A stretch of 64,000 nt of DNA from an uncultured Methanomassiliicoccales archaeon (GCA_963695345.1 OY968769.1:2080001-2144000); one strand, 5' to 3'. Shown: positions 23,801-41,461, counted from the first letter of the stretch. Notes: generated by a model not told the origin, from the letters alone. Numbers and translations are program-made.

Positions 23801-24210
23801 AGATAATAACGGATCAGTATGAAAGCCCCGAGGAAGGCGAAGAACTGGAACGATAGTTTCTCCAGCGCGATGATGCCCACGGTCTGCAGGCCCAGGGCCT
23901 GACCGATTATCCAGAAAGAGGTGCGGAACGAAAGGGGGTCGAGACCGAAGGAACCTCCCGAATAGTAATCGTTCCAGGCATAGTTACCCAGGCTGCCTAA
24001 CGGGGGAATGTAGTTCTTTGCGATCACCGCTTGGTTCTCGGGTATCATGAACACCTTGAGATTTCCCGCGATTCCTGCCTCAAGATAGGTCAGATTGCAC
24101 GCGACGGTGATGATGATGAGTATCGCGACGACCAACCAGAAGCGTCTATCTAGACCTAAGAGGTCGAAACGCTTTCGTACACCGGTGATCGCGCTATTGA
24201 AAACTGCCAA
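20818..24210 (-). CDS. Large polytopic GT-C-like protein (1130 aa) with extracellular CBM-like domains
   Basis: ~12 TM segments, YRAVYLP, NIGYLVIHND, beta-rich region LSNPSFDYG..WLDNVRV, FRESYDQKW, HFVDDGIINGY, C-terminal TM; many N-x-S/T sequons. Confidence 0.65.
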   Translation of the reverse strand: MAVFNSAITGVRKRFDLLGLDRRFWLVVAILIIITVACNLTYLEAGIAGNLKVFMIPENQAVIAKNYIPPLGSLGNYAWNDYYSGGSFGLDPLSFRTSFWIIGQALGLQTVGIIALEKLSFQFFAFLGAFILIRYYLSKRMDDSLTITAAAFLGSLIYGLNPSYFLGDSYWVGIQLSLTSLPWIIWAFSKTALDNKWVYLPICAILMAFNVDEHFIWAGFPIILFLYMFFCITTRKGSWKKKLVTPTVAFFGVMFLFVSLIAYRLIFRLTATSSQGLALSTTGLSVPWGHATMFNMLLASSHMDLGSYYVITSNPFSFLNYLVPATILITAAAFFAVYRYSRYNEVLFYAILLVFSILFFYVDSPFKGIHEYLFFNTPIGLAFRTWRVSDALIAISLTVLCGFTFVSIIRFVKGRRFKLFGKQRRVSLIAFLVVFILLVSAYSWPLLFTNPAANAGPADVPVEFQNAWNYLDSVGEDYRAVYLPDYGSYKPVWSSTVGSNDIWTFSSSVPTILFGTNWNHFGYFALDTKYSSSLFHNQDVESLAAFCGFVNIGYLVIHNDVKELQGLVQPMISKMENSSVFLEVFHQGMVYIFKNLKADYRISTNQDLVLADGGYRLMDQFMKSTGYSNDFSYDFIGQDVSLKAISAAPIIISDKTDSQMIEGLTYMEAMVTAGSNMTTIFPYDQVVNFNPTTQWSKGSYWDPHQNVWHPYVNWPQYSFDFDFNRGVVYTIGSTDQVNFEITPDHSGNSYLILRYFANEQGGTIQVTTNGVDQTIETYDGYDGFLLAKIPMVAVDGETVTVSLKNIAGFNGISAISIVSAESYDSARTDALGLLTTKTVYKFGINVLSNPSFDYGYGGWQVYYSVNGSVPVRSPISNYTNQDNYMDGVYALLFQQNKTIAGVETYQIISDEFAFDQNKTYTITADSLPYGLTIPLVQVSYLDENNDLISQTNMTIDQRSIWNLWRSNQTSLEVPAGAVYGRVDISFDLKNNDSETWKCWLDNVRVLASDKVDLTTTMLSPKNSDISFIRISSVEYRIDMTNVSGQAIVAFRESYDQKWVLTASDGTVQGHFVDDGIINGYVVTGNGNISLNLYYTGQNNMQIGYWLSYAGMGVALLLIVGNIVWNWRKRS

Positions 24211-24795: not shown

Positions 24796-25794
24796 TCAAG
24801 CGATCAGTAGTCGGTTTCGATGTTGGTGATCGGCAGTCGAGAACGCATAGCAGCTCAGAAGGTTGGAGGGGGACATGGTGGCAACGAAACTGCCGGCGGC
24901 TAGATCCCCTGTCCCCTCTATCTGGGTCCAGTAGAGGGGTCCCGACGCCCACGGCAAACCGCTGGCAATCATGCTGACCACATCCTTGGCCACCGCATCT
25001 TCCATGGAGGTGGTGAAAGGCTGATCCATCGCATCGCTCAATAGGACGATGCTGCCGTTGCCCCTATGGATAACGGCGGCCGATGTGAGGCTCTCTCCCC
25101 TCGAATACAGATACCCGATCGCCTGGCCATAGTTCTCCACATCACTGACCCGCATTCCCTGTCTGGGTGAGACGAATTCGAAGCCAAAGGCGGTGGCCAC
25201 TAGACTGGCAGTGACGCCGCTCCCCCCTTCATAGTCCAAGGCCTCATACCCTATCTGGTAGGGCGCGGCCATGGAGGAATTGGCGGAAACGAACGGCAAG
25301 GCTTCCGATCCCAGGCCGAAGATCAATCCTCCTTTTTCTACCCACGACAACATATCGGCTTCCTGGTCCGACCAGTCCTGGGTCGAATTGACTATGATCA
25401 GGGCGGAAGGTCCGCCCTTCATAACATCCAAGGCCCCCTGGTGGTCGACCAGCCTGACCGTCACAGGTAAACCTGATATCTCAATCTCGGCCCGGATGTG
25501 GTCGTACAGGCCCAATATCCGGGCGTAGTCCTGAATTGAGTATTTATTTTTGTCAGAGAATATGTAAATGGGCAAGGGCTCATATCGATCCAACGGTACC
25601 AGGACGATTCTTACGGGATCGGAGTATCGAGAAGACGAAATAGAATAGTTGACCAGCACCGATTCATTGCTCCCGCCGTAACCTCGTTTGACGGTCAACG
25701 TGATCGCGCCTGGCTCATTCCAGGGCTGGATCACCGCCGATGTGATGAACAACGCGGATATCACAAGCGCCAGCAGAATCGCCCCTATCCTCAT
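24796..25794 (-). CDS. Secreted/membrane-anchored hypothetical protein
   Basis: N-terminal signal/TM; WVEKGGLIFGLG and GNGSIVLL resemble a class-I GATase-like/DUF4350-type fold; ATGA overlap with the upstream gene. Confidence 0.6.
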   Translation of the reverse strand: MRIGAILLALVISALFITSAVIQPWNEPGAITLTVKRGYGGSNESVLVNYSISSSRYSDPVRIVLVPLDRYEPLPIYIFSDKNKYSIQDYARILGLYDHIRAEIEISGLPVTVRLVDHQGALDVMKGGPSALIIVNSTQDWSDQEADMLSWVEKGGLIFGLGSEALPFVSANSSMAAPYQIGYEALDYEGGSGVTASLVATAFGFEFVSPRQGMRVSDVENYGQAIGYLYSRGESLTSAAVIHRGNGSIVLLSDAMDQPFTTSMEDAVAKDVVSMIASGLPWASGPLYWTQIEGTGDLAAGSFVATMSPSNLLSCYAFSTADHQHRNRLLIA

Positions 25795-27218
25795 TTTTCC
25801 TTCACCTCAGGATTCCTCGTCAGGTAAGATAGGGGATCATATTTTGCGGGAAGAAAAATGGAGTAAAGGAACAATGTTGCCGAAAAAATCACCGCGGATA
25901 GGATGAATATGTGCGATAACGGATCCGCCGAATTGTAGTACAACACGATATTGCTGTTAAGTGTCTCGATTTCCACCAGCCCAACGTAGCTGGCTAGAGG
26001 ATAGAACAATGCGTAGAATGATTGGAGCGATGATAGGAACAGCACGCCCAGCACCGAGAGGGCGGCGAATCTCCATTCCATTCTGGTCCCCTCAGGCGCG
26101 ACCAGGAGCATCAACGGAATGAGCCATATCAGATGCTGCGGGTTGCTCAATGGCTGAAGGATCAAAAGGGTGGCCACGAACAGTAAATTGCCTCTGATCA
26201 ACCTTTTATGAAGATCCGTTCCAGTTCTTCCTTTCACTGCCCACCAGGCCCAAAGCACTGATGCCCCCAGGATGGCGATGTAAATCAGGGTGGACAGGTG
26301 CAGGTCGGGAAAGGCCGAATCCGGGCTGATCTCCGGTATTAGGCCGTTCCATAAAGACCAAACGCTGATTCCCCCGAATTGCTGATAGTCGGTTCTTCTG
26401 AGGATTAACTCCGTGAATCTTCCCGATGCAATGAAGAACGGAAGCACAGTCACCAGCGCGATCGCCCCGCCGGCGAGCAACTCGACGACCTGTTTTCCTC
26501 CGTGCTTCGATATCCAAGGAATCGTCCTCTTCCGGTTCATCACTATGATGACCGTCAGGTAGAAGAAAATGAGGAAAACTGGGTAAACCTTGAGCAAGGT
26601 TCCCACCCCTAGAGCGAAACCCGCGAAAAGATACTTTTGTCTGATCGCGAAATAAAGCGCCGCCAGGGTCATCAAGGCTGGAAGCACGTCGAACTGGCCC
26701 ATCATCGAGCCGGTAAGGATGACCAAGGGGTTCAGGAACCATAGGACGAACGCACGTTTTGCCCAGGTCTCGCCATACAGGTCCCGGACTATGAGGAATA
26801 TGATCATTCCGGCCAGCAGGTCTCCTATGATCAAGGGAAATTTGATGGCCAGATTGAACTCGGGGCTGGTTACGTATGGGACCAACATGCCCGTGGCCTG
26901 GGCCGCACCGACCATCGTCGGCTGGAACATAACAAAACCAGACGGATCTTGGAAAAGTGAAAGGAGAAGAACGAACGGATACGTGATGACCATGAAAAGA
27001 GGGGGATATGAGTACATTACATGGCCATAGATACCCAGGCCTGAAAGGGAATCGGCCATCGCTGAATAGTACGGGTATACGTCGTAGGTCCAGGAAGTGA
27101 ATGGAGCCAAGGCGAAACGGATCGCCAAACCGACCAGGGCGATGACCGCGATCCCCCTGAAGGAAAGCATGAGGGACCTGGTCAAATGTACATACGATCT
27201 TATTGATCCATCAGCCAT
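25791..27218 (-). CDS. GT87/PIG-M-like GT-C membrane glycosyltransferase
   Basis: TSWTYDV, YSYPPL, IKFPLIIGDL, WFLNP, GQFDVLP, LKVYP, NPQHLIW. Confidence 0.8.
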   Translation of the reverse strand: MADGSIRSYVHLTRSLMLSFRGIAVIALVGLAIRFALAPFTSWTYDVYPYYSAMADSLSGLGIYGHVMYSYPPLFMVITYPFVLLLSLFQDPSGFVMFQPTMVGAAQATGMLVPYVTSPEFNLAIKFPLIIGDLLAGMIIFLIVRDLYGETWAKRAFVLWFLNPLVILTGSMMGQFDVLPALMTLAALYFAIRQKYLFAGFALGVGTLLKVYPVFLIFFYLTVIIVMNRKRTIPWISKHGGKQVVELLAGGAIALVTVLPFFIASGRFTELILRRTDYQQFGGISVWSLWNGLIPEISPDSAFPDLHLSTLIYIAILGASVLWAWWAVKGRTGTDLHKRLIRGNLLFVATLLILQPLSNPQHLIWLIPLMLLVAPEGTRMEWRFAALSVLGVLFLSSLQSFYALFYPLASYVGLVEIETLNSNIVLYYNSADPLSHIFILSAVIFSATLFLYSIFLPAKYDPLSYLTRNPEVKEK

Positions 27219-27412: not shown

Positions 27413-28375
27413 TCACGGACTTCCGCCGTCGCCCGACCGGACCTTTGAGGCATAGAACCTGTTGAATATCCATTTGTACACTCGGTTGGGGATCGCCAGC
27501 ATGGGCACGTCGACCAGCCAGAAGCTCGGGTAGGATCCGAAGGACCGTCTCATTAGACCGAACAGCTCGGAGTCCACCTTCAATCCGTTCACCTTGGCCC
27601 AGGAGATCTCTCGCACATAACGGCCTTTGATCACGAAATCACCGTTCCTCTTGATCTGGTGCGAATAGCCCAGGTCTTCCATGCCGGAAAAGAGCTGGAC
27701 AAGTTTGAGACCGACCTGTAAGGATGTGCCGCCCTTTCCCCATCTGGCTCCTTCGCCCTGCCTCAGCATTTCGTCGGCGATGACATAGCCCTTTCTTCCG
27801 TCCTTTGGAGCCAGCGACTGGATCGAGTAGGCGAAGTGGATCCACAGACAACCATCGAACCTCTTCATGTCCAGGTCCAGCCATACCTGGCGGTTCACTA
27901 TGTTGCTGGAGACCAGGCCGTTCTTGAACTGACCATGCCTGAAGAACTGGTTACCGTCCTGGCAGAATACATCATCTGAGAGTCCCAGATCGATCCAGTT
28001 CTTGAAATTGGCGAATATCAGGGCCAGGTCGGGGTGTTTGACCATCACGTCCATGATGTGGCCGACCGATCCTGGGAGCAGGTAGTCATCATCCGAGACA
28101 AACCACACGAACTTGCCCTTTGCGTTCCGCACGATGCAATCGACGTTCGCGTCGAAGCCAACATTGACATCGTTCCTGGCGTACCTGACCAATTCGGGAT
28201 AGCGGGATTGATAGTCTTTGGCAATATTGGCGGTCTCATCGACCGACGCATTGTCCATTATCAGGACCTCGACGGACTTTCCCTCCGCTTCTTTGATGAT
28301 GCTGTCCAGCACTTCGGAGAGGAACATCTGACCGTTATAGGTGGGTATGCCTATTGTCAATACAGGAACGTTCAT
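27413..28375 (-). CDS. GT2 glycosyltransferase, abequosyltransferase (RfbV/WbaV)-like
   Basis: LTIGIPTYN, DNASVDET, NVGFDAN, WFVSDDD, WIHF. Confidence 0.8.
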   Translation of the reverse strand: MNVPVLTIGIPTYNGQMFLSEVLDSIIKEAEGKSVEVLIMDNASVDETANIAKDYQSRYPELVRYARNDVNVGFDANVDCIVRNAKGKFVWFVSDDDYLLPGSVGHIMDVMVKHPDLALIFANFKNWIDLGLSDDVFCQDGNQFFRHGQFKNGLVSSNIVNRQVWLDLDMKRFDGCLWIHFAYSIQSLAPKDGRKGYVIADEMLRQGEGARWGKGGTSLQVGLKLVQLFSGMEDLGYSHQIKRNGDFVIKGRYVREISWAKVNGLKVDSELFGLMRRSFGSYPSFWLVDVPMLAIPNRVYKWIFNRFYASKVRSGDGGSP

Positions 28376-28605
28376 GTCAGATCTCAGCCTGGTGAACCAA
28401 AAACCGCTCGGGTCCTAACCGCTTTGTCCTAATTAAATCGTGCGTTCTTCAGCATGAGGATCAACGGTGCCTGCAATGGCAGCCGTCTCAATGGTACTCT
28501 TGGAAATGAACGGACCGAACGCATCGGGCGATATTCCACCGCCCGAATGATTAGATGCTGATACATTCCGGCCAGGCATTTCCGAGGTCGAGGTCGCCCT
28601 GTCTT

Positions 28606-29658
28606 TCAGCGGACCTGGTTCCATCTTATCGTTCTGCTTATCGCGGTGTCCAGGTTGACTGTGACCTTGAGATCCAGCGTTCTGATGGCGCGGTCAACAT
28701 TGGGAACGAATTTCGATGGCTGCTCCTCGGGACCTCTGGACAGTCCGCTGATTATCTTTGGTGGGGTCGGGAAATTGGAGGCGATCTTTTGGGCCAGGTC
28801 CTGGAGGGATATCGGGTCCGGACTGCCTACATTATAGCTCTGGCCGACCTCGCCCCTGACCAGGATATTCAGTAGCCACCAGGCCATATCCGATGGGTAC
28901 ATGTAGCTTCTAACGGTCCTTCCGTCCCCAAGGATCCTGATGGGGCCTCCGAGAAGTCCGTCCCTGATGAAATTGTTGATCGCCCATGGCCTGTCCAGTA
29001 ACTGATGCGGGCCGATGAAGGCGAACGGTCGGGCGGTGACGATCGGCAATCGATGCTGGTTCCGGTAGATGGAACATATGATCTCGCCCATTCTCTTCGA
29101 CTCTGCGTAGGCTGAGCTAAATGCCCCGCAGTCCAGTCCGCCCATCATGTTCTCGGAGATCCCTTTGGTCTCCCAGGGCTGCGCGCCATAGACCAATCCC
29201 GAGCTAAGATTCAGTATCTTCCTCACATCCGATGACCTGGAGGCGTATTCAAGCAGGGAATTGGTCCCCTCGACTATGGTCTGGACGGTCCTCAGCGGCT
29301 CCGATGCGTGAACCCTCCTGTCCGGGGTGGCCGCGGCGTGGATGATGTAGGAAAAGTCAGACGGGATGTCGGTAAGGTTCCTGATGTCCCTCTCGATCAG
29401 TTGCACGTCGTCCCGTTCTGCGATATGTGGAACATTTTTCCTGAAGCTGCCGGTATTGGTTGCCAGCAGCGCCAATCTGGTCTTGAAGCCATGTTGATCG
29501 TTGAGGTAGATCACCAGCTCTGACAGCCAGGTACCAACGAAACCGGTTCCTCCGGTTATCAGCAGGGACTCATTTCTTAGAAGGTCCAATTTCTTTGTGC
29601 CGGACGAGGTGACCGCTTCCAGGTCCTGAATGACGATCTTGTGCTGAGGGTTGTTCAT
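28606..29658 (-). CDS. NAD-dependent epimerase/dehydratase (extended SDR)
   Basis: ITGGTGFVG, SSGLVYG, YAESK, ARPFAFIGP, RSYMY. Confidence 0.85.
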   Translation of the reverse strand: MNNPQHKIVIQDLEAVTSSGTKKLDLLRNESLLITGGTGFVGTWLSELVIYLNDQHGFKTRLALLATNTGSFRKNVPHIAERDDVQLIERDIRNLTDIPSDFSYIIHAAATPDRRVHASEPLRTVQTIVEGTNSLLEYASRSSDVRKILNLSSGLVYGAQPWETKGISENMMGGLDCGAFSSAYAESKRMGEIICSIYRNQHRLPIVTARPFAFIGPHQLLDRPWAINNFIRDGLLGGPIRILGDGRTVRSYMYPSDMAWWLLNILVRGEVGQSYNVGSPDPISLQDLAQKIASNFPTPPKIISGLSRGPEEQPSKFVPNVDRAIRTLDLKVTVNLDTAISRTIRWNQVR

Positions 29659-30674
29659 TGGACTTTCCTTCCCTTCATGGACGAAAGCTGCGCCGCGACC
29701 TCTATGATGATATCTTCTTGGCCTCCGACCACCTGCCTTCGCCCCAATTCGAAGAAGACATCGCGCGGGTCCACGTCGTACTCCATGGAGATCCTCTCCA
29801 CCGGCTTCGAGAAACCCGAGAAGACGCCAGCCATTCCGCTGACGACGCTCAAGGACCTTATCCTCGGGATCTCCTTCATCAGTTCCTTCTCGGCCATATC
29901 GGCGGCGTCGAGCAGTCCGTAGAGGTCGATCCCGGTCGAATACCCCATTTTATCCAGGACCGCCACGAGGACCTCGACCTGGGCATTGCCAGCGCCGGCG
30001 CCGAATCCCCTTGCTGCCCCATCGATGATGGTGGCGCCCGCCTCCACCGCCGCCATGGCGTTAGCGATCCCCATCCCCAGATTGTTGTGGGCGTGGAATC
30101 CGACGGGAATATTTAATTTGCCTACCAGAAGGGAGATGCGCTCCGTTACCTGAGGAGGAAGGTATGCCCCGGCCGAATCATAGATCACCACTCCTTCAGC
30201 GCCATAGGATTCCATCTTCTGAGCCTCCACCAGTAGGACGTCCGGCGAGGCCATGTGGCTCATCATGAGGGCCCCGACGGCCTCTTTGCCCTTCGCGCGA
30301 ATAAAACTGATATGCCTCTGGGTAACGTCTGCCTCGGTGCAATGGGCGGCCACCCTGACAACGTCCACTCCCAGTTCCAAAGCCTTCCCCAGGTCCCTCC
30401 TGATCGTGGCGAAACCCGGCATGTCATGGATGGCCAGCTTTGCCGTCGTTAGGCACTTTTTGGCCTCGGTCAACATCTTCTCGTCATTGATGGCACTTAT
30501 ACCGACCTGTAATGAGGATGCTCCAAGGCCGTTCCCGTGTCCGACCTCGACGATGGGGACGCCGGCAGCGTTGGCGGCCTTAGCATAGGACGTGATCTGC
30601 TCTACCGACAATTGGTGGGCCACCGCGTGGTTCCCATCCCTCAAGGTCACGTCATGGACAGTAATTTTAGACAT
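29655..30674 (-). CDS. dmpG: 4-hydroxy-2-oxovalerate aldolase
   Basis: DVTLRDGNHA, EVGHGNGLGASS, HCTEAD, LMMSHM, GFHAHNNLG, VGGQED. Confidence 0.93.
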   Translation of the reverse strand: MSKITVHDVTLRDGNHAVAHQLSVEQITSYAKAANAAGVPIVEVGHGNGLGASSLQVGISAINDEKMLTEAKKCLTTAKLAIHDMPGFATIRRDLGKALELGVDVVRVAAHCTEADVTQRHISFIRAKGKEAVGALMMSHMASPDVLLVEAQKMESYGAEGVVIYDSAGAYLPPQVTERISLLVGKLNIPVGFHAHNNLGMGIANAMAAVEAGATIIDGAARGFGAGAGNAQVEVLVAVLDKMGYSTGIDLYGLLDAADMAEKELMKEIPRIRSLSVVSGMAGVFSGFSKPVERISMEYDVDPRDVFFELGRRQVVGGQEDIIIEVAAQLSSMKGRKVQ

Positions 30675-30699
30675 GGACCATCCTTAATAGGCCGCACCT

Positions 30700-31581
30700 T
30701 TATTTGTTCATTATGATTTGTTTGGCGAATCGTTCGGCCATTGATATTCCAGCGCAGTTGATAATATCCATGTTCCCGGCATATTTCGGAAGGTAGTCCC
30801 CCATACCCCTGACTCTGACCATCACGACCACCCGGTTCGCCTCGATCGTCGGAGCGACCAGCAGATTGTATCCCGGGACATATTTCTGGATCTTAGCGAC
30901 CATCGAATCGACCTCCTCCCTGAGACGTGCCATGTCTGGCCGCTTCACCTTGGCAAAGACCGTAGTCTGCATGTCGATCGAGGGGTTGGCCGGATTCAGG
31001 ATCAGGATGGCCTTTACGTTCTGGCAGCCGGAGAACTTCCTCAGTCCCCTCTCGGTGGTGTCCACATACTCGTCCAGGTTCTGTCTCGTTGCCGGACCGG
31101 CACTCCGGGAGGCGATGCTCGAGACGACCTCGATATACTCCACGTCTTCCTGCGTCCTTCCGATAACGTTAGCCAGCGGTATCGATGCCTGCCCCCCGCA
31201 GGTGATCATGTTGATATTGTCATAGTCCAGGCATTCGTCCAGATTGATCGCCGGAATGCACATCTCGCCGATCCCGGACGGGGTCATGTCAATGACCTTC
31301 TTGTTCAGCTTCTTAAGGATCGGCCAGTGTTTGCTGTGGTCCATCGCCGAGGTGGCATCGAAAACAACGTCGCAGCAATCGGGATTCCTTTCGATCGCGT
31401 CAATGCTCAGGTCAGACACCTTGACCCCCAGGCTGTTCGCCTTGTTCATTCCTGGCGTCCCCAGGTGGCGTCCGATGAACAGCGAACACTCGATGTAGGG
31501 GGATCGCATCGTTTTGACCAAGAGGTCCGTTCCGATGTTGCCGCTGCCTAGGATCGCTACCTTGACCTTTTTGGTGTTCAT
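30700..31581 (-). CDS. dmpF: Acetaldehyde dehydrogenase (acylating)
   Basis: GSGNIGTDL, FDATSA, NMITCGGQA, SRSAGPATR, GDYLPKYAGNMDI. Confidence 0.95.
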   Translation of the reverse strand: MNTKKVKVAILGSGNIGTDLLVKTMRSPYIECSLFIGRHLGTPGMNKANSLGVKVSDLSIDAIERNPDCCDVVFDATSAMDHSKHWPILKKLNKKVIDMTPSGIGEMCIPAINLDECLDYDNINMITCGGQASIPLANVIGRTQEDVEYIEVVSSIASRSAGPATRQNLDEYVDTTERGLRKFSGCQNVKAILILNPANPSIDMQTTVFAKVKRPDMARLREEVDSMVAKIQKYVPGYNLLVAPTIEANRVVVMVRVRGMGDYLPKYAGNMDIINCAGISMAERFAKQIIMNK

Positions 31582-31608
31582 TATGCAGCACCCACAGTGT
31601 CTCGAGGT

Positions 31609-33399
31609 TCACTTGCATCCTCTGCGGACGTTACAGGCCAGATATTCTTCCCTGGGAAGGAATGGGAACATGTCGTCGTAAGGCATGGACCTCATGGTTC
31701 CATCCTCCAGCTTCTTCGATGCGATCCTCGGGATCAGTATCTGGTTCGGCGGGTTCATGACCTCGATGATCATCGGTCCATCCTCGGTGAACATCGGCAT
31801 TATGGACGATTCAAGGTCATCAGTGGCCTCTATCCGCATATACTTCAATCCGTAGGCATCAGCCAGCTTAGACAGGTCGGGGAAGCTCACGCCATTGGAC
31901 TCGTCCGTCCCAATATGGCGGCCTCCCTGGAAGTTGTTCTGCGTCAATCGGATCAGGAGGTATCCGTTGTTATTCAGGACGATCAATTTGATGGGAAGCT
32001 TGTTGTGGACAATGGTCTGCAGTTCTTGGATGTTCATCTGCAGGGACCCGTCCCCGGAAATGCAATAGATATTCCTGTTGGGGAAAGCGGAGGCCATCCC
32101 GATCGACCCAGGCATGTAGCCCATCGTCGAAAGTCCACCGGTTATCAGATGTCTTTGACCGAACTTGACCTTGAACGCCTGGGCATAGGCGTGGAAGCAT
32201 GAACCGGTGTCGACCAGGAACAATGCGTCCTGCGGCGCCTTCTGCGACAGGACATGATAGAAGTGATAGGAATTGATCCCTTCCTTCTCATCCAGATACT
32301 CCGGCAGGTCCACTGGATAGTTCCGTTTCCATTCCTGGGTCTTCATCACCCATTCCTTGTGGGGGAAGGTGAAGCCCTCGAGGGCCTTGTTCAATTTGAT
32401 GAAGAATTCTTTTGCATCGGCCTTGATGGCCAGGTCTGGAACGACCGAGGGCTTTTTCAGCTCTTCCTCATCGATGTCCACCATGATCTTCTTCGCATCT
32501 TTCGCGAAATCCTGATAATCATAGCTGACCAGGCCAATGGCCAGTCGGCAGCCGACACTTATGAACAGGTCAGAATTCTGGATGGTGAAATTGCTCGGGC
32601 GATCCCCATAGGTCCCCGGCCGGCCAACGAAACAAGGGTCGTCGTGGTCAATCAGGTCCATCCCCAATCTGGAGGTCATTACCGGTATCCTCACGTTGTC
32701 GACAAAGGCGTGGAACTCGTCGATCGCCTCCGCCAATCTTACGCCCGCACCGACCAACAGACACGGCCTCTCGCTCATCCTGATGTCCTCGGCGACCATT
32801 CTTACCTGCTCATCGAGGCTTGGTCTGGAGTTTTGGACCGGGGAAGGGGGAGTGTATCCCTCGTAATCATCAGGATCGAAGCTGGCGCCCTGGATATCGA
32901 TCGGGCATTCGATCCAGACCGGCCCGACCCTGGCCTCCTTCGCTATGTGGATGCATTTTTCCACCTCATATCTGACCCGGGAGATGTCATCCAGCATGAC
33001 CGCGTATTTGGTAACGTTCTTGAATATCGGCAGTGTGTTGTAACCCTGGAGCGCGAATTGCCTGGGCCCCGTGACCTTGGCCTGTGAGACCTTGGATTGG
33101 CCGGAAACGATGATGCAGGGGGCGGAATCGACATAGGCGCCGACCACTCCGGTCAAGGTGTTCAAGGCCCCTGGCCCGGCGGTGACATAGGCCACTCCCA
33201 ATTTTCCCGTGGAGCGTCCATAGGCGTCCGCCGCCATGACCGCGGCCTGTTCATGATGGCAGCACACGTATCTCTGTTCTCCGTGTTGCAGTAGGGCATC
33301 CGTCAGATGCATGATCATGCCCCCGGTGATCAGGAAAACACAATCTCCTCCGGCATCAAACAGACGATGGGTGATATAGTCAGCAACACGGACTTTCAT
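31609..33399 (-). CDS. ThDP-dependent acetolactate-synthase-like carboligase (YerE-like)
   Basis: HHEQAAVMAADAY, TAGPG, GPVWIECPIDIQ, GDGSLQMNIQEL..LNNNGY ThDP motif; next to CDP-3,6-dideoxyhexose genes. Confidence 0.85.
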   Translation of the reverse strand: MKVRVADYITHRLFDAGGDCVFLITGGMIMHLTDALLQHGEQRYVCCHHEQAAVMAADAYGRSTGKLGVAYVTAGPGALNTLTGVVGAYVDSAPCIIVSGQSKVSQAKVTGPRQFALQGYNTLPIFKNVTKYAVMLDDISRVRYEVEKCIHIAKEARVGPVWIECPIDIQGASFDPDDYEGYTPPSPVQNSRPSLDEQVRMVAEDIRMSERPCLLVGAGVRLAEAIDEFHAFVDNVRIPVMTSRLGMDLIDHDDPCFVGRPGTYGDRPSNFTIQNSDLFISVGCRLAIGLVSYDYQDFAKDAKKIMVDIDEEELKKPSVVPDLAIKADAKEFFIKLNKALEGFTFPHKEWVMKTQEWKRNYPVDLPEYLDEKEGINSYHFYHVLSQKAPQDALFLVDTGSCFHAYAQAFKVKFGQRHLITGGLSTMGYMPGSIGMASAFPNRNIYCISGDGSLQMNIQELQTIVHNKLPIKLIVLNNNGYLLIRLTQNNFQGGRHIGTDESNGVSFPDLSKLADAYGLKYMRIEATDDLESSIMPMFTEDGPMIIEVMNPPNQILIPRIASKKLEDGTMRSMPYDDMFPFLPREEYLACNVRRGCK

Positions 33400-33522
33400 G
33401 ACATCACAACTTATTTTCTACGGTAATGATTGAGAACGGTTATATTATTCTAGCGGTGTTCATTCGGTATATCCAATTCAATCCTGGATGACTTCACAAA
33501 CACCAGTGTCCGGACGTCATTT

Positions 33523-34407
33523 TCAATGCTTGTCGACGAGAAGCAGGTTCCGGTCGATCTTGCCAAGATTGTTTCTGTAGTATCCGCACAGTGATCGTAT
33601 CGAATCCTCCAATCGGGTGAATTGGAATCCCTTCATTTCGTTCATTATCCTGGAATTGTCACCGCTGTATTCCAGCTGCAGGCCTTCCTGCTGGACCTCG
33701 ACCTCCACTTCCGCCCCGGTGACCTTGAGTATCATCTTTGCCAACGTAAGCAGGTCCACCGACCTTCCCGTGCAGGCGTTATAATGATGGTGTTCCATCG
33801 TGTTCTTGCATACGTGCTCGATCATCCGCACGAGATCATCGACCCAGATGTAGTCGAAGAAGACGTTTTTCCTTATGCTTATGGGAAGACCGAAAAGTGC
33901 CTTGCACATCGCGTTCGAAATGAACCTGATCTCCCAGTCCTCGTAAGGTCCGAAGCAGCCGAAGACCCTCAGGTCGATCACGTTGGATAATGGATCGATC
34001 GACTTGGCCATTGCATACTTTGAGAGGCCGTATTGGTCAACTGGAACGTGCCGACCGAAATACTGTTCCCTCATGAAAGGGAGATAATGTCGCTTGTCAT
34101 ACTCCGCCCCTGAACCGAGATAGATCATTTTTCCATATCTATCGTTCAATCTGGTCAGGTTGTAGAACATCAACAGGTTCTTCTCCAGCACCAGATGGGT
34201 ATCCTTCTTGGAGTTGGCGGTGGAATTCCAGGTGGCCGTGTGGATCACACTGTCGAAGTCATTGCGATCGACGTAATGCTCGACCGCCTCTTGATCCAAC
34301 AGGTCCAGTTCTTTGCTGGTCGGTGCGAATACTTCCATGTCCGATGGGAGCTTCTCCACGATGTTCCTTCCAATGAACCCTCGACCACCGGTGACGAAGA
34401 CCCTCAT
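33523..34407 (-). CDS. NAD(P)-dependent sugar-nucleotide reductase (extended SDR, YerF-like)
   Basis: VTGGRGFIG, LGSGAEY, YGLSK, LRVFGCFGP. Confidence 0.8.
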   Translation of the reverse strand: MRVFVTGGRGFIGRNIVEKLPSDMEVFAPTSKELDLLDQEAVEHYVDRNDFDSVIHTATWNSTANSKKDTHLVLEKNLLMFYNLTRLNDRYGKMIYLGSGAEYDKRHYLPFMREQYFGRHVPVDQYGLSKYAMAKSIDPLSNVIDLRVFGCFGPYEDWEIRFISNAMCKALFGLPISIRKNVFFDYIWVDDLVRMIEHVCKNTMEHHHYNACTGRSVDLLTLAKMILKVTGAEVEVEVQQEGLQLEYSGDNSRIMNEMKGFQFTRLEDSIRSLCGYYRNNLGKIDRNLLLVDKH

Positions 34408-34599
34408 GTCCGTCCCTCATGAACTTGTTGCATGGCTGTTGCGTACCTGAATCGCCAGGTCACTATTAATAGTCATGACAAATGATAATTCGAACTCCGA
34501 TGTTGACAGTGCGTTAATGAATGGATATTGAACCCGATCCGTTCGACATTATCACGCCGTTGGCATATCGATGATAGAAGGGTCATCAGATCCCCATCC

Positions 34600-34640
34600 A
34601 TATAAATAAATAATCAAGGAATATTATAATATTATTGAAA
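34600..34640. promoter_or_regulatory. AT-rich divergent promoter region with 14-bp perfect palindrome
   Basis: aatattataatatt at 34620-34633, between the divergent SDR-ThDP operon and rfbFGH. Confidence 0.45.
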
Positions 34641-34695
34641 ATAACGAGTAAATTCATATACTATCTAACAATAATGTGGAATCCAAGGGTACCAT

Positions 34696-35466
34696 ATGAA
34701 GGTAGTCATCCTGGCTGGAGGCCTTGGCACACGATTGAGCGAGGAGACGGTCGACCGCCCCAAACCGATGGTCGAAATCGGTGGAATGCCAATAATCTGG
34801 CACATTATGAAGCATTACTCGTTCTATGGTTTCAACGATTTTGTGATCTGCCTTGGGTACAAGGGCTACATGATCAAGGAGTATTTTGCCAATTATTTCA
34901 TCCACATGTCCGATGTCACCGTGGATCTGAAGAACAACAAGATCGAGGTCCACAGCGCCCATGCCGAACCCTGGAAAGTGACCATGGTCGACACGGGGAC
35001 GGAGACGATGACCGGTGGACGGTTGAAAAGGGTGCAGGATTACGTCGGCGAGGGCACATTCATGATGACCTACGGGGACGGGGTCAGCGACCTCAACCTC
35101 AAATCCTTGGTGAAGTTCCACAAGTCAAAGAAGGTCAAGGCCACCCTCACCGCGGTCAAACCGACCGGCAAGTGGGGCCAATTGGACATTGGTCAGAAGG
35201 ACATCGTGGAATCATTCGTGGAGAAACCGAAGGGAGACGGGAGCTACATCAACGGCGGCTTCTTCGTCCTCGAACCCGAGGTCTTCGACTATATCAAGAA
35301 CGACTCCACGATATGGGAGCGGGACCCCCTGGAAGGATTGGCCAAAGGACATAAACTGGCCGCTTACAAGTACGATGGTTTCTGGTATGCCATGGACACC
35401 CTCAGGGACAAGATGTATCTGGAGAATCAGTGGGCTTCCGGTCAGGCACCCTGGAAATCCTGGTGA
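34696..35466 (+). CDS. rfbF: Glucose-1-phosphate cytidylyltransferase
   Basis: MKVVILAGGLGTRLSEET..PKPMVEIG, TMTGGRLKR, TYGDG, MDTLRDK, APWKSW. Confidence 0.96.
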   Translation: MKVVILAGGLGTRLSEETVDRPKPMVEIGGMPIIWHIMKHYSFYGFNDFVICLGYKGYMIKEYFANYFIHMSDVTVDLKNNKIEVHSAHAEPWKVTMVDTGTETMTGGRLKRVQDYVGEGTFMMTYGDGVSDLNLKSLVKFHKSKKVKATLTAVKPTGKWGQLDIGQKDIVESFVEKPKGDGSYINGGFFVLEPEVFDYIKNDSTIWERDPLEGLAKGHKLAAYKYDGFWYAMDTLRDKMYLENQWASGQAPWKSW

Positions 35467-35472
35467 TGCCAA

Positions 35473-36573
35473 TTGACCCTTCATGACCTTTCATACTACC
35501 GAGGCAAGCGGGTCTACCTCACCGGCCATACCGGGTTCAAGGGCGGCTGGCTCGCATCCTGGTTGGACAAGCTCGGAGCGAAGGTCCACGGGTTCTCATT
35601 GGCCCCCGGGACCGATCCCAGTTTCTTCGATTCCACAGGCATACAGGACCGGATCGAGAACGAGATCGGGGACATCCGGGACCTTTCTGCCCTGAAACGG
35701 TCGATGGGCGAATTCCAGCCGGATATGGTGTTCCACCTTGCCGCCCAGCCTCTGGTCCGGCTTTCGTACGAGGAACCGGTCGAGACCTTCGAGACCAATG
35801 TCATGGGGACCGTCAACGTCCTGGAGGCATTGAGGGGCTGTTCCGGAACCAAGGCCTGCGTGATGATAACCAGCGACAAATGCTACCAGAACAATGAATG
35901 GGTGTATTCCTATCGGGAGAACGATCCGATGGGAGGTCACGACCCATACAGCGCCAGCAAAGGGGCGGCGGAGATCGTCATCGGCTCATACCGTTCATCA
36001 TACTTCTCAAAGGCGGCCAAGGAGGGTGCCGGATGCGGCGTGGCCAGCGCGAGGGCGGGCAACGTGATCGGGGGAGGGGATTGGGCCCTCGACCGGATCG
36101 TCCCCGACTGCATGAGGAACCTCAAGGCCTCCAAGCCCATCGTGGTCAGGAATCCGGCGGCGGTACGTCCCTGGCAACATGTCATGGAGCCTCTCTATGG
36201 ATATCTCTGCCTGGGGGCATCATTGGCAAAGCGTCCCTCCGATTTTGACTCGGCATGGAACTTCGGACCGGCCTCGGGCAACGTCAACGTAGGCTCCCTG
36301 GTGGAGATGATCGTCAAGGAATGGGGCTCCGGGAAATGGATAGATGCTTCCAATCCTTCGGACCGGCATGAGGCCCATTTCCTGCGCTTGGACAGCACGA
36401 AGGCCAGCAGCCTGCTCGGATGGCAGGGGATCCTGGATGTACCGGACGCCGTGGCCATGTCCGTGGAGTGGTACAAGGAGTTCTATTCCAACGGAGATAT
36501 GGCGGCCAAGACCAACGCCCAGATCTCCGAGTACATGGAGAGGGCAGAGCTACGTTCAAAGCGTATGGAGTGA
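35473..36573 (+). CDS. rfbG: CDP-glucose 4,6-dehydratase
   Basis: [53 protein letters not shown]. Confidence 0.96.
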
Positions 36574-36577
36574 GACC

Positions 36578-37930
36578 ATGGCAGATCATGATGACGTTCT
36601 GAGCAACCGTAAGCTGGACCGCGATCCCCGGGCGGCGGAGCTGCGCGATTCGATCCTGAAGCAAGTGGAAGAATACTTCTCCATTGCCCATGCCAAGGCG
36701 GAGTTCGTGCCCGGTAAGACGCCGGTGCCGGTCTCCGGGAAGGTCTTCGACGGAGACGACGGGCAATTCCTGGTGGCCTCCTCATTGGATTTCTGGTTGA
36801 CCACGGGCAGGTTCAACGACATGTTCGAGAGCCGGTTCAGGGACTTCATCCAGAGCGAGCACGCCCTCACCACCAACTCCGGTTCCTCCGCCAATCTGCT
36901 GGCGGTCACCGCGCTCACCTCGAACAAGCTTGGCGGCGAACGGTTGAGAAAGGGAGACGAGGTGATCACCGTGGCGGCGGGATTCCCCACCACGCTCAAC
37001 CCCATCATTCAGAACGGCCTCGTTCCGGTGTTCGTTGATGTGGGGCTGCCCACGTACAATGTCAACGCAGACCTCCTGGAGGATGCGGTATCGGAGAAGA
37101 CCAAGGCGATGATCTTCGCCCATACACTGGGAAACCCCTTCGATGTGGACAGGATCGTGGCGTTCGCCGAGGAGCACGATCTCTGGCTGGTCGAGGATTG
37201 CTGCGATGCCCTGGGTTCGAGATACGGCGGTCGACCGGTCGGGACGTTCGGTGACATCGGTACCTTCAGCTTCTATCCCGCCCACCACATAACCATGGGG
37301 GAAGGCGGTGCGGTGGCCACGAACGATGACGTTCTGGCAAAATCCTTGGAATCGTTCCGGGACTGGGGTCGTGATTGCCATTGCCCGCCCGGTCATGACA
37401 ATACCTGCCGGAACCGTTACGGGTTCAAGTTCGAGAACCTTCCCCAGGGTTACGATCACAAGTATGTCTACTCGGAGGTCGGATACAATCTGAAGATCTC
37501 CGACATGCAGGCGTCCGTCGGCCTGTCCCAGATGGACAAGCTGTCCGGGTTCATCGTCAGGAGGCAGGAGAACTACGCCAAACTGCGCGGGGCCCTCGCA
37601 GATCTGGAGGGATCGATAATATTGCCCGAGGCAACACCGAACAGCGAGCCGTCCTGGTTCGGTTTCCCCATATCGGTCAAGGGCGGGTTCGAGGAAAGGA
37701 ACCGGCTCATCGATTTCCTGGACCGGAAGAAGATCGGGACGAGGTTGCTCTTCGGAGGCAACCTGACCAAGCAGCCCTACTTCAAGGACATTCCACACCG
37801 CCAGATTGGCTCTCTCCCCAACACCGACAGGATAATGAACCAGACGCTTTGGCTGGGGGTCTATCCCGGGCTGACCCAGGAAATGATCGAGTACGTCAGT
37901 GCGTCAGTTCACGAGTTCTTCAAGCGGTGA
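36578..37930 (+). CDS. rfbH: CDP-4-keto-6-deoxyglucose 3-dehydrase E1 (PMP/[2Fe-2S])
   Basis: [31 protein letters not shown] (His replaces the aminotransferase Lys), [22 protein letters not shown]. Confidence 0.95.
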
Positions 37931-39206: not shown

Positions 39207-40001
39207 TTACGGCAGAGTGAACCCTAGCGATTCCGCCTCGTCGAACGCCTTCTGGGCCGAGTCCCTTCCTAGTGTCTTTATCACCAATTCCCTTTTTTCC
39301 AGGATATCCTTGACCAGGACCAGGTCCTTCTCCAGAAGCATCCGGGTATCCGATCTCCTCAGGTCGAGCATGGTGACGGGATACAAACGGTATCTTTCCA
39401 GAAGCTCTTCCAATCCTCCCTGTTCTGGCTGCTTCCATCCGATCAGCTTCATGCATATGCAATCGGCATACTTCACCACATCACTGGTGAAACGCGTATT
39501 GGTTACCAGGTAGGGGCATTTGAGGTCCTTCGATCCATCCACGTCCAGGAACCTGCCATAGGTATAAAGTGCGGTCTGGATGCTGCACTTCAGGGCCAGG
39601 GAGTTGTGGAACTTGCACTCCACCATGTACCGTTCCTGATCCTTCTCCATCATGACATCGACCTCATGCATGACGCATATGCCTTGGACCATCTCCCGGA
39701 CCTTTGCCTGGTAGCCCATCTCCTGGAACAGCCGGAAGATGAGGGTCTCGAAGTGGTGTCCTTCCGGCCCCAATGCCAAGATCGCCTTTTTCAACCCATA
39801 TCTGGCCGCCGTGCGGGCGTTGAGCATGATGCGGATCTGGCGATAGATCTCTTCGGTGGTGATGCCGTCGTATAGTCTGGGCAACAGGCGGTCTATGGTG
39901 TCATCGGCCTCATCCGACGATGCCCCCGCCCGCATGACCGCCGTCTTGGTCTTGGCACGGTCGAACTCCTCTGTCTCCCCGGATCGTTTGGTCACCTTCA
40001 T
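39207..40001 (-). CDS. ATP-cone + Mrr-like PD-(D/E)XK restriction endonuclease domain protein
   Basis: MKVTKRSGETEEFDRAK..YDGITTEEIY (ATP cone); LGPEGHHFE, HEVDV..VECKFHN, VTNTRF. Confidence 0.85.
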   Translation of the reverse strand: MKVTKRSGETEEFDRAKTKTAVMRAGASSDEADDTIDRLLPRLYDGITTEEIYRQIRIMLNARTAARYGLKKAILALGPEGHHFETLIFRLFQEMGYQAKVREMVQGICVMHEVDVMMEKDQERYMVECKFHNSLALKCSIQTALYTYGRFLDVDGSKDLKCPYLVTNTRFTSDVVKYADCICMKLIGWKQPEQGGLEELLERYRLYPVTMLDLRRSDTRMLLEKDLVLVKDILEKRELVIKTLGRDSAQKAFDEAESLGFTLP

Positions 40002-40192
40002 GCGCTCACCGACAGGATACGGAGAGATTGCCCGGAATAAATCAGTATTCCCAGTGAAGCGCGTCAGGATGGCCGCCATCGATGCCCGGTTTGCTCCGTT
40101 TCCCTTCGCCCACGGTCCTGGACCATCCGTGAAATCGTATGGAAACCCATCCTTGCCATCGATTAATAATATCCAATCCGGTATCCTGACCG

Positions 40193-41461
40193 TTGAATCG
40201 CCCACGGGTATCTGGCGAATTGGCCAAGCCGGCGTTGTTGATGGCAGTGGCCACTCTGATGGGTGGGGGATGCGACTATCTGTTCCAGTACTACATGAGC
40301 GGAACGATGACCCCGGCCAGTTTCTCAGAGCTTTCGGCCTTGTTGTCCATGTTCTACCTGGCGGTGGCGCCGGCCCAGGTCATGAGCACGTTCCTGGTCA
40401 AGCAGACCTCCCGGCTCAACGTCGAGGGACGGAAGCACGAGATCGCCTGGATGATCCGGAAAATGGTGCTCTATGAGGCGATCATAGGCGCCGCCATCGC
40501 CCTGGGGATGTACCTGCTGCTGCCCAGCATATCCAATTTCATCTATCTCTCCTCGACGTTCCCGGTCTTCCTGCTCATGGCCGGGGTGGTGATATCATTG
40601 ATATCGCCGGTCGGATATGGGACCAGCCAAGGGCTCGAACGGTTCCGTTACAATGCCCTCTATGGGATCACCGGGCCGGTCACCAAGCTCGGGATGGGCA
40701 TCATCCTGGTCGCCATAGGCTTCGGTATCATGGGGGCCCTCGGAGGGGTGTTGATCGGTCTGTCCCTGGCTTTGGCCGTTTCTCTGTACTCGATCCGGGA
40801 CATCTTCCGGGTCGAACCGGTCCGTATCCCCGGACCAGAGCTGGTGAGGATGCGGGCTTCGCTCGTGCACGTGATAATCGCCGTCACTTGCCTCACCATC
40901 ATGGTCAACGTGGATGTGATACTGGCAAGGCAGTATCTTGACGCCAACACCGCCGGTCTGTACGCGGTATGCTCCATGCTCGGCAAGATAATCCTCTTCC
41001 TGCCGTCGTCCATCAACATCGTGATCTATCCGAAGCTGTCGGCAGCCCATGCCAAGAGATCCGGCACCGTTGCCATGATGCGCCTTTCCGTCCTGATCGC
41101 CCTGGGGGTGACCGGCATCGTGGTCATCTCTTTCTTCCTCTTCCCTAACGAGATACTCCGGCTTCTTTACGGGGGGGACAAATACATCGGGGCGGCGGCG
41201 GGACTGGGCATACTGGGATTGGCCATGGCCCTCCTGGGCGTCGCCAACCTTTTCATGAACTATGGTCTGGCCGTCGAGTCGCGGGCGTACCTGGCCATAA
41301 TGGTGTTCTTCACCGCGTTACAGGTGGCGTTGATCGTCCTGTTCCATGATTCCCTGGTGACGATCGCCCTGGACATGCTGTTGGCCTTCGGGGGGACCAC
41401 TCTGGTGAGCTGGACCTACATGGAGTTGAGCAGCGACAAGACTGCCCATCCAGAAGCCTGA
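40193..41461 (+). CDS. Oligosaccharide flippase (Wzx family)
   Basis: ~12 TM segments, QGLERF, NVDVILAR, AGLYA..LGKI..YPK. Confidence 0.85.
   Translation: MNRPRVSGELAKPALLMAVATLMGGGCDYLFQYYMSGTMTPASFSELSALLSMFYLAVAPAQVMSTFLVKQTSRLNVEGRKHEIAWMIRKMVLYEAIIGAAIALGMYLLLPSISNFIYLSSTFPVFLLMAGVVISLISPVGYGTSQGLERFRYNALYGITGPVTKLGMGIILVAIGFGIMGALGGVLIGLSLALAVSLYSIRDIFRVEPVRIPGPELVRMRASLVHVIIAVTCLTIMVNVDVILARQYLDANTAGLYAVCSMLGKIILFLPSSINIVIYPKLSAAHAKRSGTVAMMRLSVLIALGVTGIVVISFFLFPNEILRLLYGGDKYIGAAAGLGILGLAMALLGVANLFMNYGLAVESRAYLAIMVFFTALQVALIVLFHDSLVTIALDMLLAFGGTTLVSWTYMELSSDKTAHPEA

Follow-up and report, generated by a model that had tools for sequence, protein, structure and literature searches.

We analyzed a 64,000-nucleotide stretch of the genome of an uncultured Methanomassiliicoccales archaeon (GCA_963695345.1, OY968769.1:2080001-2144000; hereafter the window), in which a cluster of nine genes combines enzymes for a sugar linked to cytidine diphosphate (CDP) with a thiamine diphosphate (ThDP)-dependent enzyme and an aldolase-dehydrogenase pair of the DmpG and DmpF families. 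Three genes, rfbF, rfbG, and rfbH, lie on the plus strand and diverge from six genes on the minus strand. The latter encode, in order of transcription, a small short-chain dehydrogenase/reductase (SDR294), the ThDP enzyme, a DmpF-like and a DmpG-like protein, an extended SDR (SDR350), and a family 2 glycosyltransferase (GT2). All nine genes are found where an earlier reading of this DNA, made from the sequence alone, had placed them. That reading described the minus-strand operon as tightly packed, which is true of its inner four genes (intergenic distances of −4 bases for SDR350/DmpG, 25 for DmpG/DmpF, and 27 for DmpF/ThDP) but not of SDR294 or GT2, which are separated from their neighbors by 123 bases (ThDP/SDR294) and 230 bases (SDR350/GT2).

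The host genome is a single closed 2.56-Mb contig that carries mcrA and in which every cluster gene is intact; mcrA and kinship to relatives of the same genus identify the host as a methanogen of the Methanomassiliicoccales. A glycan locus of roughly 37 kb (∼5.9 to 42.4 kb of the window) surrounds the cluster and contains several GT2 and GT4 enzymes, two flippase-like proteins, an AftD-like GT-C enzyme, and RmlA/RmlB-like genes. The glycan-locus setting in a methanogen that the sequence-only reading had described was therefore borne out. In agreement with its statement that ring-cleavage genes are absent, no ring-cleavage or hydratase family was detected among the 29 open reading frames (ORFs) of the window scanned against Pfam, 27 of which lie between 5.9 and 42.4 kb.

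Enzymes of the cluster

The sugar-nucleotide arm begins with rfbF (ddhA; 34696-35466, plus strand), which encodes a glucose-1-phosphate cytidylyltransferase of 256 amino acids (aa) (TIGR02623, 422.7 bits; cut-off, 300). It is followed by rfbG (ddhB; 35473-36573, plus strand), which has a TTG start and encodes a 366-aa CDP-glucose 4,6-dehydratase (TIGR02622, 472.6 bits; cut-off, 278). The third gene, rfbH (ddhC; 36578-37930, plus strand), encodes E1, the CDP-6-deoxy-4-keto-glucose 3-dehydrase dependent on pyridoxamine phosphate and a [2Fe-2S] cluster (450 aa; NF011936, 687.6 bits; cut-off, 423). All three scores exceed the equivalog cut-offs. The rfbH ORF as called (36344-37930) runs into rfbG; its start is likely the ATG at 36578, four bases past the rfbG stop, which yields the 450-aa protein. 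RfbH carries cysteines in the arrangement C209-X57-C267-X-C269-X7-C277, a spacing that we take to be the [2Fe-2S] motif of E1, and all four were invariant in 42/42 aligned homologues. Between rfbF and SDR294 lies an AT-rich spacer of 288 bp (34408-34695) with several TATA-like runs, read directly, which presumably holds the promoters for both divergent operons.

The ThDP enzyme (31609-33399, minus strand; 596 aa) contains all three TPP domains, with a catalytic E50 and the canonical GDG449-451...NN motif. Its score against the best acetohydroxyacid synthase (AHAS) model, TIGR00118, was 358.6 bits, well below the cut-off of 538.35, and other AHAS models fell further below. Its best match in the PDB was the YerE-like enzyme JanthE (8rph), with a full-length alignment that scored 404 bits, compared with 233 bits for the best AHAS and 232 bits for 5ahk, which we take to be PpYerE. 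Judged by these scores, the protein is a YerE/ErwE-like carboligase and not an acetolactate synthase, the adverse outcome that the earlier reading had itself named. ThDP-dependent paralogues elsewhere in the host genome are separate, distant, and 25 to 35% identical to it, while homologues 64 to 89% identical occur in Methanomicrobiales, cyanobacteria, Geobacteraceae, and others.

Directly downstream of the ThDP gene, a 293-aa DmpF-like acylating acetaldehyde dehydrogenase (30700-31581, minus strand) scored 380.4 bits against TIGR03215 (cut-off, 282) and has an AcetDehyd-dimer domain; its Cys128, in the sequence ITCGGQA, lines up with the corresponding segment in DmpF-type enzymes of known structure. 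The DmpG-like aldolase encoded next to it (29655-30674, minus strand; 339 aa) scored 392.9 bits against TIGR03217 (cut-off, 286) and includes the DmpG_comm communication domain (PF07836, 90 bits). Its residues R12, D13, H16, H194, and H196 align with R17, D18, H21, H200, and H202 of DmpG. This is the one DmpG-family gene of the host genome; five other matches were partial and 25 to 38% identical.

Two SDRs flank these genes. SDR350 (28606-29658, minus strand; 350 aa; PF01370, 120 bits) has the motifs GGTGFVG at 36 and YAESK at 184, and among solved structures it comes closest, at ∼100 bits, to nucleotide-sugar SDRs (8vr2, UDP-glucuronate decarboxylases). It is a candidate for a cassette-borne, ErwF-like ketoreductase acting on the C1′ keto group of a sugar branch. 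The RmlD-like SDR294 (33523-34407, minus strand; 294 aa; PF01370, 89 bits; RmlD_sub_bind, 52 bits) has GGRGFIG at 7 and YGLSK at 126; it is a second candidate for the branch reductase (YerF-like) or, alternatively, an epimerase, and, as the usual neighbor of YerE-like genes in this lineage, looks like a native partner of their products. For GT2 (27413-28375, minus strand; 320 aa; PF00535, 81 bits), every NCBIfam match was far below its cut-off, so the label "RfbV-like" given to it by the sequence-only reading was not sustained. By its position, GT2 is a candidate transferase for the product of the cluster.

Conservation of the cassette and its aldolase signature

Scanning one genome per species with the motifs E[CS]PIDIQG and YPVDLPEY yielded 55 loci, which we compared with the window's nine proteins by tblastn, counting rfb genes within 10 kb. 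A search of archaeal genomes for clusters of dmpFG, the ThDP gene, and rfb genes had been suggested by the earlier reading; by record title, ten of the 55 loci are archaeal (five Methanoregulaceae/Methanomicrobiales, one Methanomassiliicoccales, one Methanocellaceae, one Methanoperedens, and two Altiarchaeia), and the remainder belong to many bacterial phyla. DmpF was found in 52/55 loci and DmpG in 52/55, with both in 51/55. The ThDP, DmpF, and DmpG genes were collinear in that order on one strand in 47/55, and SDR350 directly followed DmpG in 41 of these 47. RfbF, RfbG, and RfbH were all present in 45/55 loci, and RfbH was present at an identity of at least 45% in 46/55. Most homologous loci combine dmpFG with rfbH, in agreement with the earlier reading. 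GT2 was conserved in the same-genus locus L049 (75%) only and was weak or absent elsewhere (3/55 loci). On these counts, the linkage of ThDP, DmpF, and DmpG genes is far beyond chance, and no other genomic observation argues as strongly that DmpFG supply the ThDP enzyme.

The aldolases of these loci differ from their catabolic relatives at two positions. While the catalytic and metal-binding positions (R12, D13, H16, H194, and H196) were invariant in 53/53 cassette aldolases, alignment of the window enzyme to 1nvm and two other solved catabolic enzymes placed F285 at the position of DmpG Tyr291 and H83 at that of DmpG Leu88. Across the 53 cassette aldolases, the Tyr291 position was occupied by Phe in every case, and the Leu88 position by His in 39, Phe in 11, Leu in 2, and Tyr in 1. 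Control enzymes had Tyr (30/30) and Leu (30/30) at these positions, as did the three solved structures; the controls were the 30 DmpG-family aldolases that scored best in 301 evenly sampled Actinomycetota genomes, with a DmpF gene adjacent in 29. The numbering of DmpG Tyr291/Leu88 presumably corresponds to BphI Tyr290/Leu87 by a one-residue offset, which agrees with H21 and Y291 as counted in 1nvm.

According to PMC3962088, BphI Tyr290 and Leu87 flank C4 of the substrate; the Y290F variant loses 4S control, and two double variants, L87N/Y290F and L87W/Y290F, are specific for the 4R enantiomer. The window aldolase lacks the Tyr291/Leu88 pair that enforces 4S specificity in DmpG, BphI, and HsaF, and its predicted product, 4-hydroxy-2-oxopentanoate, is probably the 4R enantiomer. 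The Phe/His signature, together with the use of the (R) acid by ErwE (the ThDP enzyme of the erwiniose pathway, see below), makes the cassette aldolases appear as natural equivalents of the BphI variants engineered for 4R specificity. The signature fits a biosynthetic role and would set these aldolases apart from the catabolic family. A third position is informative about chain length: shrinking BphI Leu89 to Ala admits long aldehydes, and the residue at this position was bulky in 53/53 cassette aldolases (Ile, 45; Met, 4; Leu, 4). Such residues would favor short aldehydes, with no discrimination between acetaldehyde and propionaldehyde, two substrates that BphI handles alike (PMC3962088).

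The cassette proteins are 64 to 89% identical to those of Methanoregulaceae, Methanoperedens, Methanocellaceae, Altiarchaeia, and many bacterial phyla, and the ThDP gene of the window type is rare in archaea, occurring in 3/261 genomes of the order (the window's own included) and in 4/401 sampled genomes of the order containing the Methanoregulaceae. More distant YerE-like genes (36 to 44% identity) were found in a further 16/261 and 3/401 of these genomes, respectively. In a quick LG+G4 tree of 52 ThDP sequences, from which L049 and L054 were omitted as frameshifted and L055 and L057 as truncated, the window grouped with five Methanoregulaceae rows with a Shimodaira-Hasegawa-like approximate likelihood ratio (SH-aLRT) support of 100. 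These, together with six bacterial rows (cyanobacteria, Planctomycetes-Verrucomicrobia-Chlamydiae [PVC] phyla, and one metagenome-assembled genome), formed a starred 12-row clade with an SH-aLRT support of 96 and no resolved internal order. The two Altiarchaeia grouped with Omnitrophota and Elusimicrobiota (SH-aLRT, 98), and the position of Methanoperedens was not resolved; archaeal rows stood in three places behind starred branches. Forcing archaeal monophyly cost 50 log-likelihood units, with a borderline approximately unbiased (AU) test result of P = 0.0506 for a group that was named after the tree had been seen. These placements suggest separate cross-domain transfers, and the identities of 56 to 70% across phyla and the patchy occurrence imply exchange between the domains. 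No compositional sign of recent transfer was seen in the window, the GC content of the cassette being equal to the genome mean (0.558 versus 0.560), and the repeats flanking the cluster were just short, low-identity pairs that we took as chance.

In two of the archaeal loci, the ThDP gene is split into two frames: L049 (10001-11789, equivalent to G219:C14:104249-106037), from the same genus, and the Methanocellaceae locus L054 (10001-11762), whose DmpF gene is likewise in two pieces and contains a TAG. These splits could reflect indels in the assembly or genes in decay.

Comparison within the order suggests how the cluster was put together. Unlike SDR350, SDR294 does not travel with the cassette. 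Its homologues (E ≤ 1e-30) were detected in 7/261 genomes of the order, every one belonging to the window's family. In five of these (G000, G216, G219, G217, and G241), the gene lies within ∼120 bases or less of a YerE-like ThDP gene; in G222, the ThDP gene adjoining the SDR294 homologue is cut by the contig end, and in G229, the SDR294 copy contains 6 in-frame stops, with no ThDP match among those listed. The ThDP gene next to SDR294 is of the window type in G216 and G219 (87 to 89% identity). G217, of the same genus, and G241, of a sister genus, have another type there; their two enzymes share 72% identity with each other and 37 to 41% with that of the window. Both genomes lack DmpFG, and their RfbF, RfbG, and RfbH are 52 to 73% identical to the window's. 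YerE-like enzymes differing from the window's (37 to 45% identity) are paired with rfbF, rfbG, and rfbH in L068 (7142-14838), L066 (7225-14525), and L071 (2001-13696; G217:C42). In the first of these, which is the G241 locus (G241:C12:268000-287900), a gene for a NeuB-family synthase separates rfbH from the ThDP gene, and one for a HAD phosphatase comes after the SDR294 homologue; the second, from G074 (G074:C1:530000-549900), encodes a 563-aa HMGL-like protein and a HAD hydrolase near the ThDP gene. The NeuB-like and HMGL-like genes, which stand in place of DmpFG, are putative alternative keto-acid modules, which suggests that several different acyl-branched sugars occur in one archaeal order.

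The rfb genes and the cassette have different closest relatives. The window's rfbF and rfbG are 72 to 73% and 56 to 60% identical, respectively, to those of family members, compared with 47 to 50% and 27 to 29% for four Methanoregulaceae loci; values for the remaining Methanoregulaceae locus, L012, fall in between (rfbF, 65%; rfbG, 54%). For the cassette, the closest relatives outside the genus are Methanoregulaceae (74 to 78%). Given these relationships, and given that SDR294 is shared by loci with differing ThDP types, we infer that ThDP-DmpF-DmpG-SDR350 is a transferable cassette that was set beside a native framework of rfbFGH and the small SDR, where it may have replaced another keto-acid module.

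A different context for the cassette was seen in Paenibacillus sp. FSL K6-1217 (L040, 2669-21298), where the ThDP-DmpF-DmpG trio occurs without rfb genes and without SDR350. Around it lie genes for five proteins with collagen-like repeats, for a GT2 that has hexapeptide repeats, and for O-FucT-like and RmlA-like proteins. This neighborhood, too, is one of surface glycans, with another nucleotide carrier, and gives a hint that collagen-like glycoproteins of the spore or surface bear a branched sugar.

The proposed pathway and its alternatives

A DmpFG-driven pathway to the branched sugar erwiniose was published in 2022 for Pectobacterium atrosepticum SCRI1043 (Steitz et al. 2022, PMC9306805), and the mechanism put forward in the sequence-only reading is a rediscovery of it. 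The cluster was found there starting from yerE/yerF and adjoins genes for CDP-4-keto-3,6-dideoxyglucose; it encodes ErwE (ThDP enzyme), ErwF (reductase), ErwI (a BphI-like aldolase), and ErwJ (a BphJ-like acetaldehyde dehydrogenase). In the proposed route, ErwJ converts acetyl-CoA to acetaldehyde, ErwI adds pyruvate, ErwE decarboxylates the resulting (R)-4-hydroxy-2-oxopentanoate and adds it to C4 of the keto sugar, and ErwF reduces the product (PMC9306805). With a cyclic ketone as surrogate acceptor, ErwE accepted 4-hydroxy-2-oxopentanoate and not pyruvate (PMC9306805).

The locus in the window is quite probably an archaeal version of this erwiniose-type acyl-branched-sugar pathway. RfbF would convert glucose-1-phosphate to CDP-glucose, RfbG would convert this to CDP-4-keto-6-deoxyglucose, and RfbH, with an electron donor, would remove the 3-OH to give CDP-4-keto-3,6-dideoxyglucose. 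In parallel with this sugar arm, the DmpF-like enzyme, predicted to run in the reverse of its catabolic direction, would reduce acetyl-CoA to acetaldehyde with NAD(P)H, and the DmpG-like aldolase would join acetaldehyde to pyruvate, forming 4-hydroxy-2-oxopentanoate. The YerE-like enzyme is predicted to decarboxylate this 4-hydroxy-2-oxo acid and to attach the 3-hydroxybutanoyl group that remains to C4 of the CDP-linked keto sugar. Reduction of the C1′ ketone by one or the other SDR would then yield a CDP-linked 4-C-(1,3-dihydroxybutyl)-3,6-dideoxyhexose, the C10 skeleton of erwiniose, and a glycosyltransferase of the surrounding locus would transfer the branched sugar to a surface glycan. The sequence analysis itself establishes which genes are present, their order, the conserved cassette, and the aldolase signature; each chemical step, along with the direction in which DmpF runs, the stereochemistry, and the acceptor that finally receives the sugar, we infer from homology to Pectobacterium and established enzymology. 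The central claim of the sequence-only reading, that DmpFG supply 4-hydroxy-2-oxovalerate to the ThDP enzyme for a branch at C4, gains support from the YerE-likeness of that enzyme, the conserved cassette beside rfb genes, the aldolase signature, and the published scheme (PMC9306805). Its further claim that an SDR reduces the branch is compatible with two SDRs that have intact glycine-rich and YxxxK motifs, either of which may act.

Several observations weigh against the erwiniose-type reading. E1 requires an electron donor, classically E3 (DdhD/AscD/RfbI), and we found no E3/DdhD-like reductase in the window; the genome's single NAD_binding_1 protein is ∼1.4 Mb away. A ferredoxin fused to a ferredoxin-NADP reductase domain was found in 0/56 loci by a rough regular-expression search that had no positive control. 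Two SDRs are present where one reduction is needed. No rfb gene lay within reach in 6/55 loci (one 6.7-kb contig, four Paenibacillus, and one Polyangiaceae). The length of the branch is not fixed by the sequence, given that BphI-type enzymes take propionaldehyde and ErwE prefers a C6 acid. The gene order in the window, E-J-I-F in terms of the erw genes, differs from the order E-F-J-I suggested by the consecutive Pectobacterium accessions WP_011093010 to WP_011093013. Finally, no Pectobacterium locus was recovered by the motif-based scan that gave the 55 loci; ErwE lacks the scan's two peptide motifs and is probably more distant from the window enzyme than the 56 to 89% identical relatives that we found.

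Some of these observations would be accommodated if the cluster followed the same logic toward a different product, a homologue or stereoisomer of erwiniose: a C11 sugar with a propionaldehyde-derived C5 branch, a sugar that the second SDR epimerizes or otherwise modifies, or one with the other C1′ configuration. ErwE converted 4-hydroxy-2-oxohexanoate better than the pentanoate (76% versus 49%; PMC9306805, Table 1), and the indifference of BphI to acetaldehyde or propionaldehyde points the same way (PMC3962088), as do the surplus SDR and the altered gene order. The bulky residue at the BphI Leu89 position in all 53 cassette aldolases argues against aldehydes much longer than C2 to C3. We regard such a variant product as unlikely, although it is the alternative that best survives the evidence.

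The lack of an E3 raises a second alternative, in which RfbH is inactive or slow, the acceptor is CDP-4-keto-6-deoxyglucose, and the resulting branched 6-deoxy sugar keeps its 3-OH. The statement in the sequence-only reading that RfbFGH make CDP-4-keto-3,6-dideoxyhexose is upheld for the three genes themselves but is incomplete for the reaction, which these three do not carry out alone: of the components of a complete route to CDP-4-keto-3,6-dideoxyglucose (cytidylyltransferase, 4,6-dehydratase, E1, and E3), E3 was found neither in the window nor in the cassette loci. In five bacterial hosts, we detected no placeable NAD_binding_1-type Pfam match inside the cassette block; in this check, a 496-aa frame may sit at the far edge of L033, and one further match could not be placed. 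The genome G268 (that of L047, an Aliarcobacter cryaerophilus record) has rfbF, rfbG, rfbH, and the full cassette without any match to NAD_binding_1 (PF00175), and E1 in such hosts must therefore take electrons from something other than a classical E3. We assume that a different electron donor likewise serves RfbH here, and ferredoxins or flavodoxins of anaerobes could plausibly reduce E1. An idle RfbH would be hard to reconcile with an intact protein whose four cysteines are kept in all 42 aligned homologues and which is itself retained, at the identity threshold given above, in 46 of the 55 loci. A 3-OH-retaining acceptor is, in our assessment, improbable.

We consider it more improbable still that the ThDP enzyme is a YerE that takes pyruvate and forms a C2 branch as in yersiniose, with DmpFG acting after branching or in unrelated acetaldehyde metabolism. 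YerE, the founder of the family, does use pyruvate and gives a C2 branch (PMC9306805), and JanthE, the closest solved relative, also accepts pyruvate (PMC12188165). This alternative leaves unexplained why DmpF and DmpG directly follow the ThDP gene in 47/55 loci across many phyla, and why sister archaea whose YerE-like enzyme is of the other type (37 to 45%) lack DmpFG and instead have other keto-acid-forming genes. An aldolase acting after branching was tested for ErwE and rejected, as pyruvate was not accepted (PMC9306805). The scanned neighbors, moreover, offer no catabolic context for DmpFG, of which the genome has a single DmpG-family gene. Very unlikely is a catabolic role, in which DmpFG would perform the last steps of meta-cleavage or a comparable pathway and would lie beside sugar genes by chance. 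In its favor, both proteins exceed the equivalog cut-offs of catabolic families; it is opposed by the lone DmpG-family gene, the lack of hydratase or dioxygenase genes among the Pfam-scanned neighbors, the anaerobic methanogen host, Tyr291/Leu88 positions unlike those of 30/30 controls, and the conserved linkage to the ThDP gene.

Returning to the erwiniose-type pathway, the glycan locus that would receive its product encodes further proteins of possible interest. A 475-aa multi-pass GT-C-like protein with PIG-U/PMT_2 matches (25791-27218, minus strand) and an 812-aa multi-pass GT-C-like protein with an AftD-like match (10141-12579, plus strand) could be polymerase, ligase, or oligosaccharyl-transfer components of the locus. 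An ORF of 1,130 aa (20818-24210, minus strand) and an adjoining ORF of 332 aa (24796-25794), each without a Pfam match at E ≤ 1e-5, may encode surface or glycan-processing proteins of unknown family. Amid glycosyltransferase and flippase-like genes lies one for a protein with ATP-cone and Mrr-type restriction-endonuclease domains (39207-40205, minus strand).

If the erwiniose-type reading is true, the surface of some methanogens bears a branched deoxysugar of ten carbons; within the literature that we could search, erwiniose has been reported only from a bacterial O-antigen. It would also widen the known range of archaeal glycan chemistry and point to traffic of gene cassettes between bacterial and archaeal glycan loci. 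More broadly, we put forward tentatively, and with somewhat less than even confidence, that acyl-branched higher sugars are a so far unrecognized component of archaeal surface glycans, diversified by swaps of keto-acid modules, and that the cassette aldolase is a natural 4R-selective enzyme of the DmpG type, marked by Phe at 291 and His or Phe at 88 and parallel to the engineered BphI L87N/Y290F. For biocatalysis, the loci offer ThDP carboligases that, as a family, are predicted to act on hydroxylated keto acids, and a natural aldolase subfamily whose signature predicts a stereochemistry opposite to that of the well-studied catabolic enzymes.

Comparison with known systems

Understanding of the erwiniose pathway itself is unchanged from its publication in 2022; what we offer as new is the wide distribution of the cassette, the Phe/His signature in the aldolase that it encodes, the alternative modules in one archaeal family, and the archaeal host. 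Within the literature that we could search, no paper combined yersiniose with archaea, no title among the matches listed tied YerE-like enzymes to archaea, and literature combining 4-hydroxy-2-oxovalerate aldolase, acetaldehyde dehydrogenase, and O-antigen was, by title, catabolic or general genomics. The erwiniose cluster of Pectobacterium, as described in print, shares with the window the same four enzyme families, the sugar arm, and the surface-glycan context. The window differs from it in its archaeal host, in the second small SDR, and in having no detected E3.

The yersiniose system of Yersinia pseudotuberculosis (YerE/YerF) likewise shares the YerE-like ThDP flavoenzyme fold, CDP-4-keto-3,6-dideoxyglucose made by DdhA/B/C, and a final reduction. 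However, YerE uses pyruvate, whereas the ThDP enzyme of the window is tied to DmpFG, which would supply a C5 hydroxy-keto acid. The closest solved structure to this enzyme is that of JanthE from Janthinobacterium sp. HH01 (8rph/8rpi/8rpj). PMC12188165 describes JanthE as a YerE-like enzyme that accepts ketone acceptors, with donors that include pyruvate and 4-hydroxy-2-oxovalerate, and gives its physiological substrates as unknown. The ThDP motif of JanthE is CDG, in contrast to the canonical GDG of the window enzyme.

With the catabolic pairs DmpFG, BphIJ, and HsaFG (1nvm, 4jn6, 8ih7, and 4lrs), the window proteins share the same folds, the communication and dimerization domains, the catalytic Arg/Asp/His, the metal-binding His, and the active-site Cys. 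They differ in the biosynthetic direction predicted for them and in having ThDP and sugar genes, rather than hydratase or ring-cleavage genes, as neighbors. Finally, the mycobacterial caryophyllose and gastriose clusters (MMAR_2331/2332 and MygI/MyGE) follow the same scheme, in which an aldolase-made keto acid is attached by a YerE-like enzyme (PMC9306805). These clusters use other aldolase families and build longer, polyhydroxylated branches, and their closer analogues among the loci described here are not the window but the NeuB-like locus L068 and the HMGL-like locus L066.

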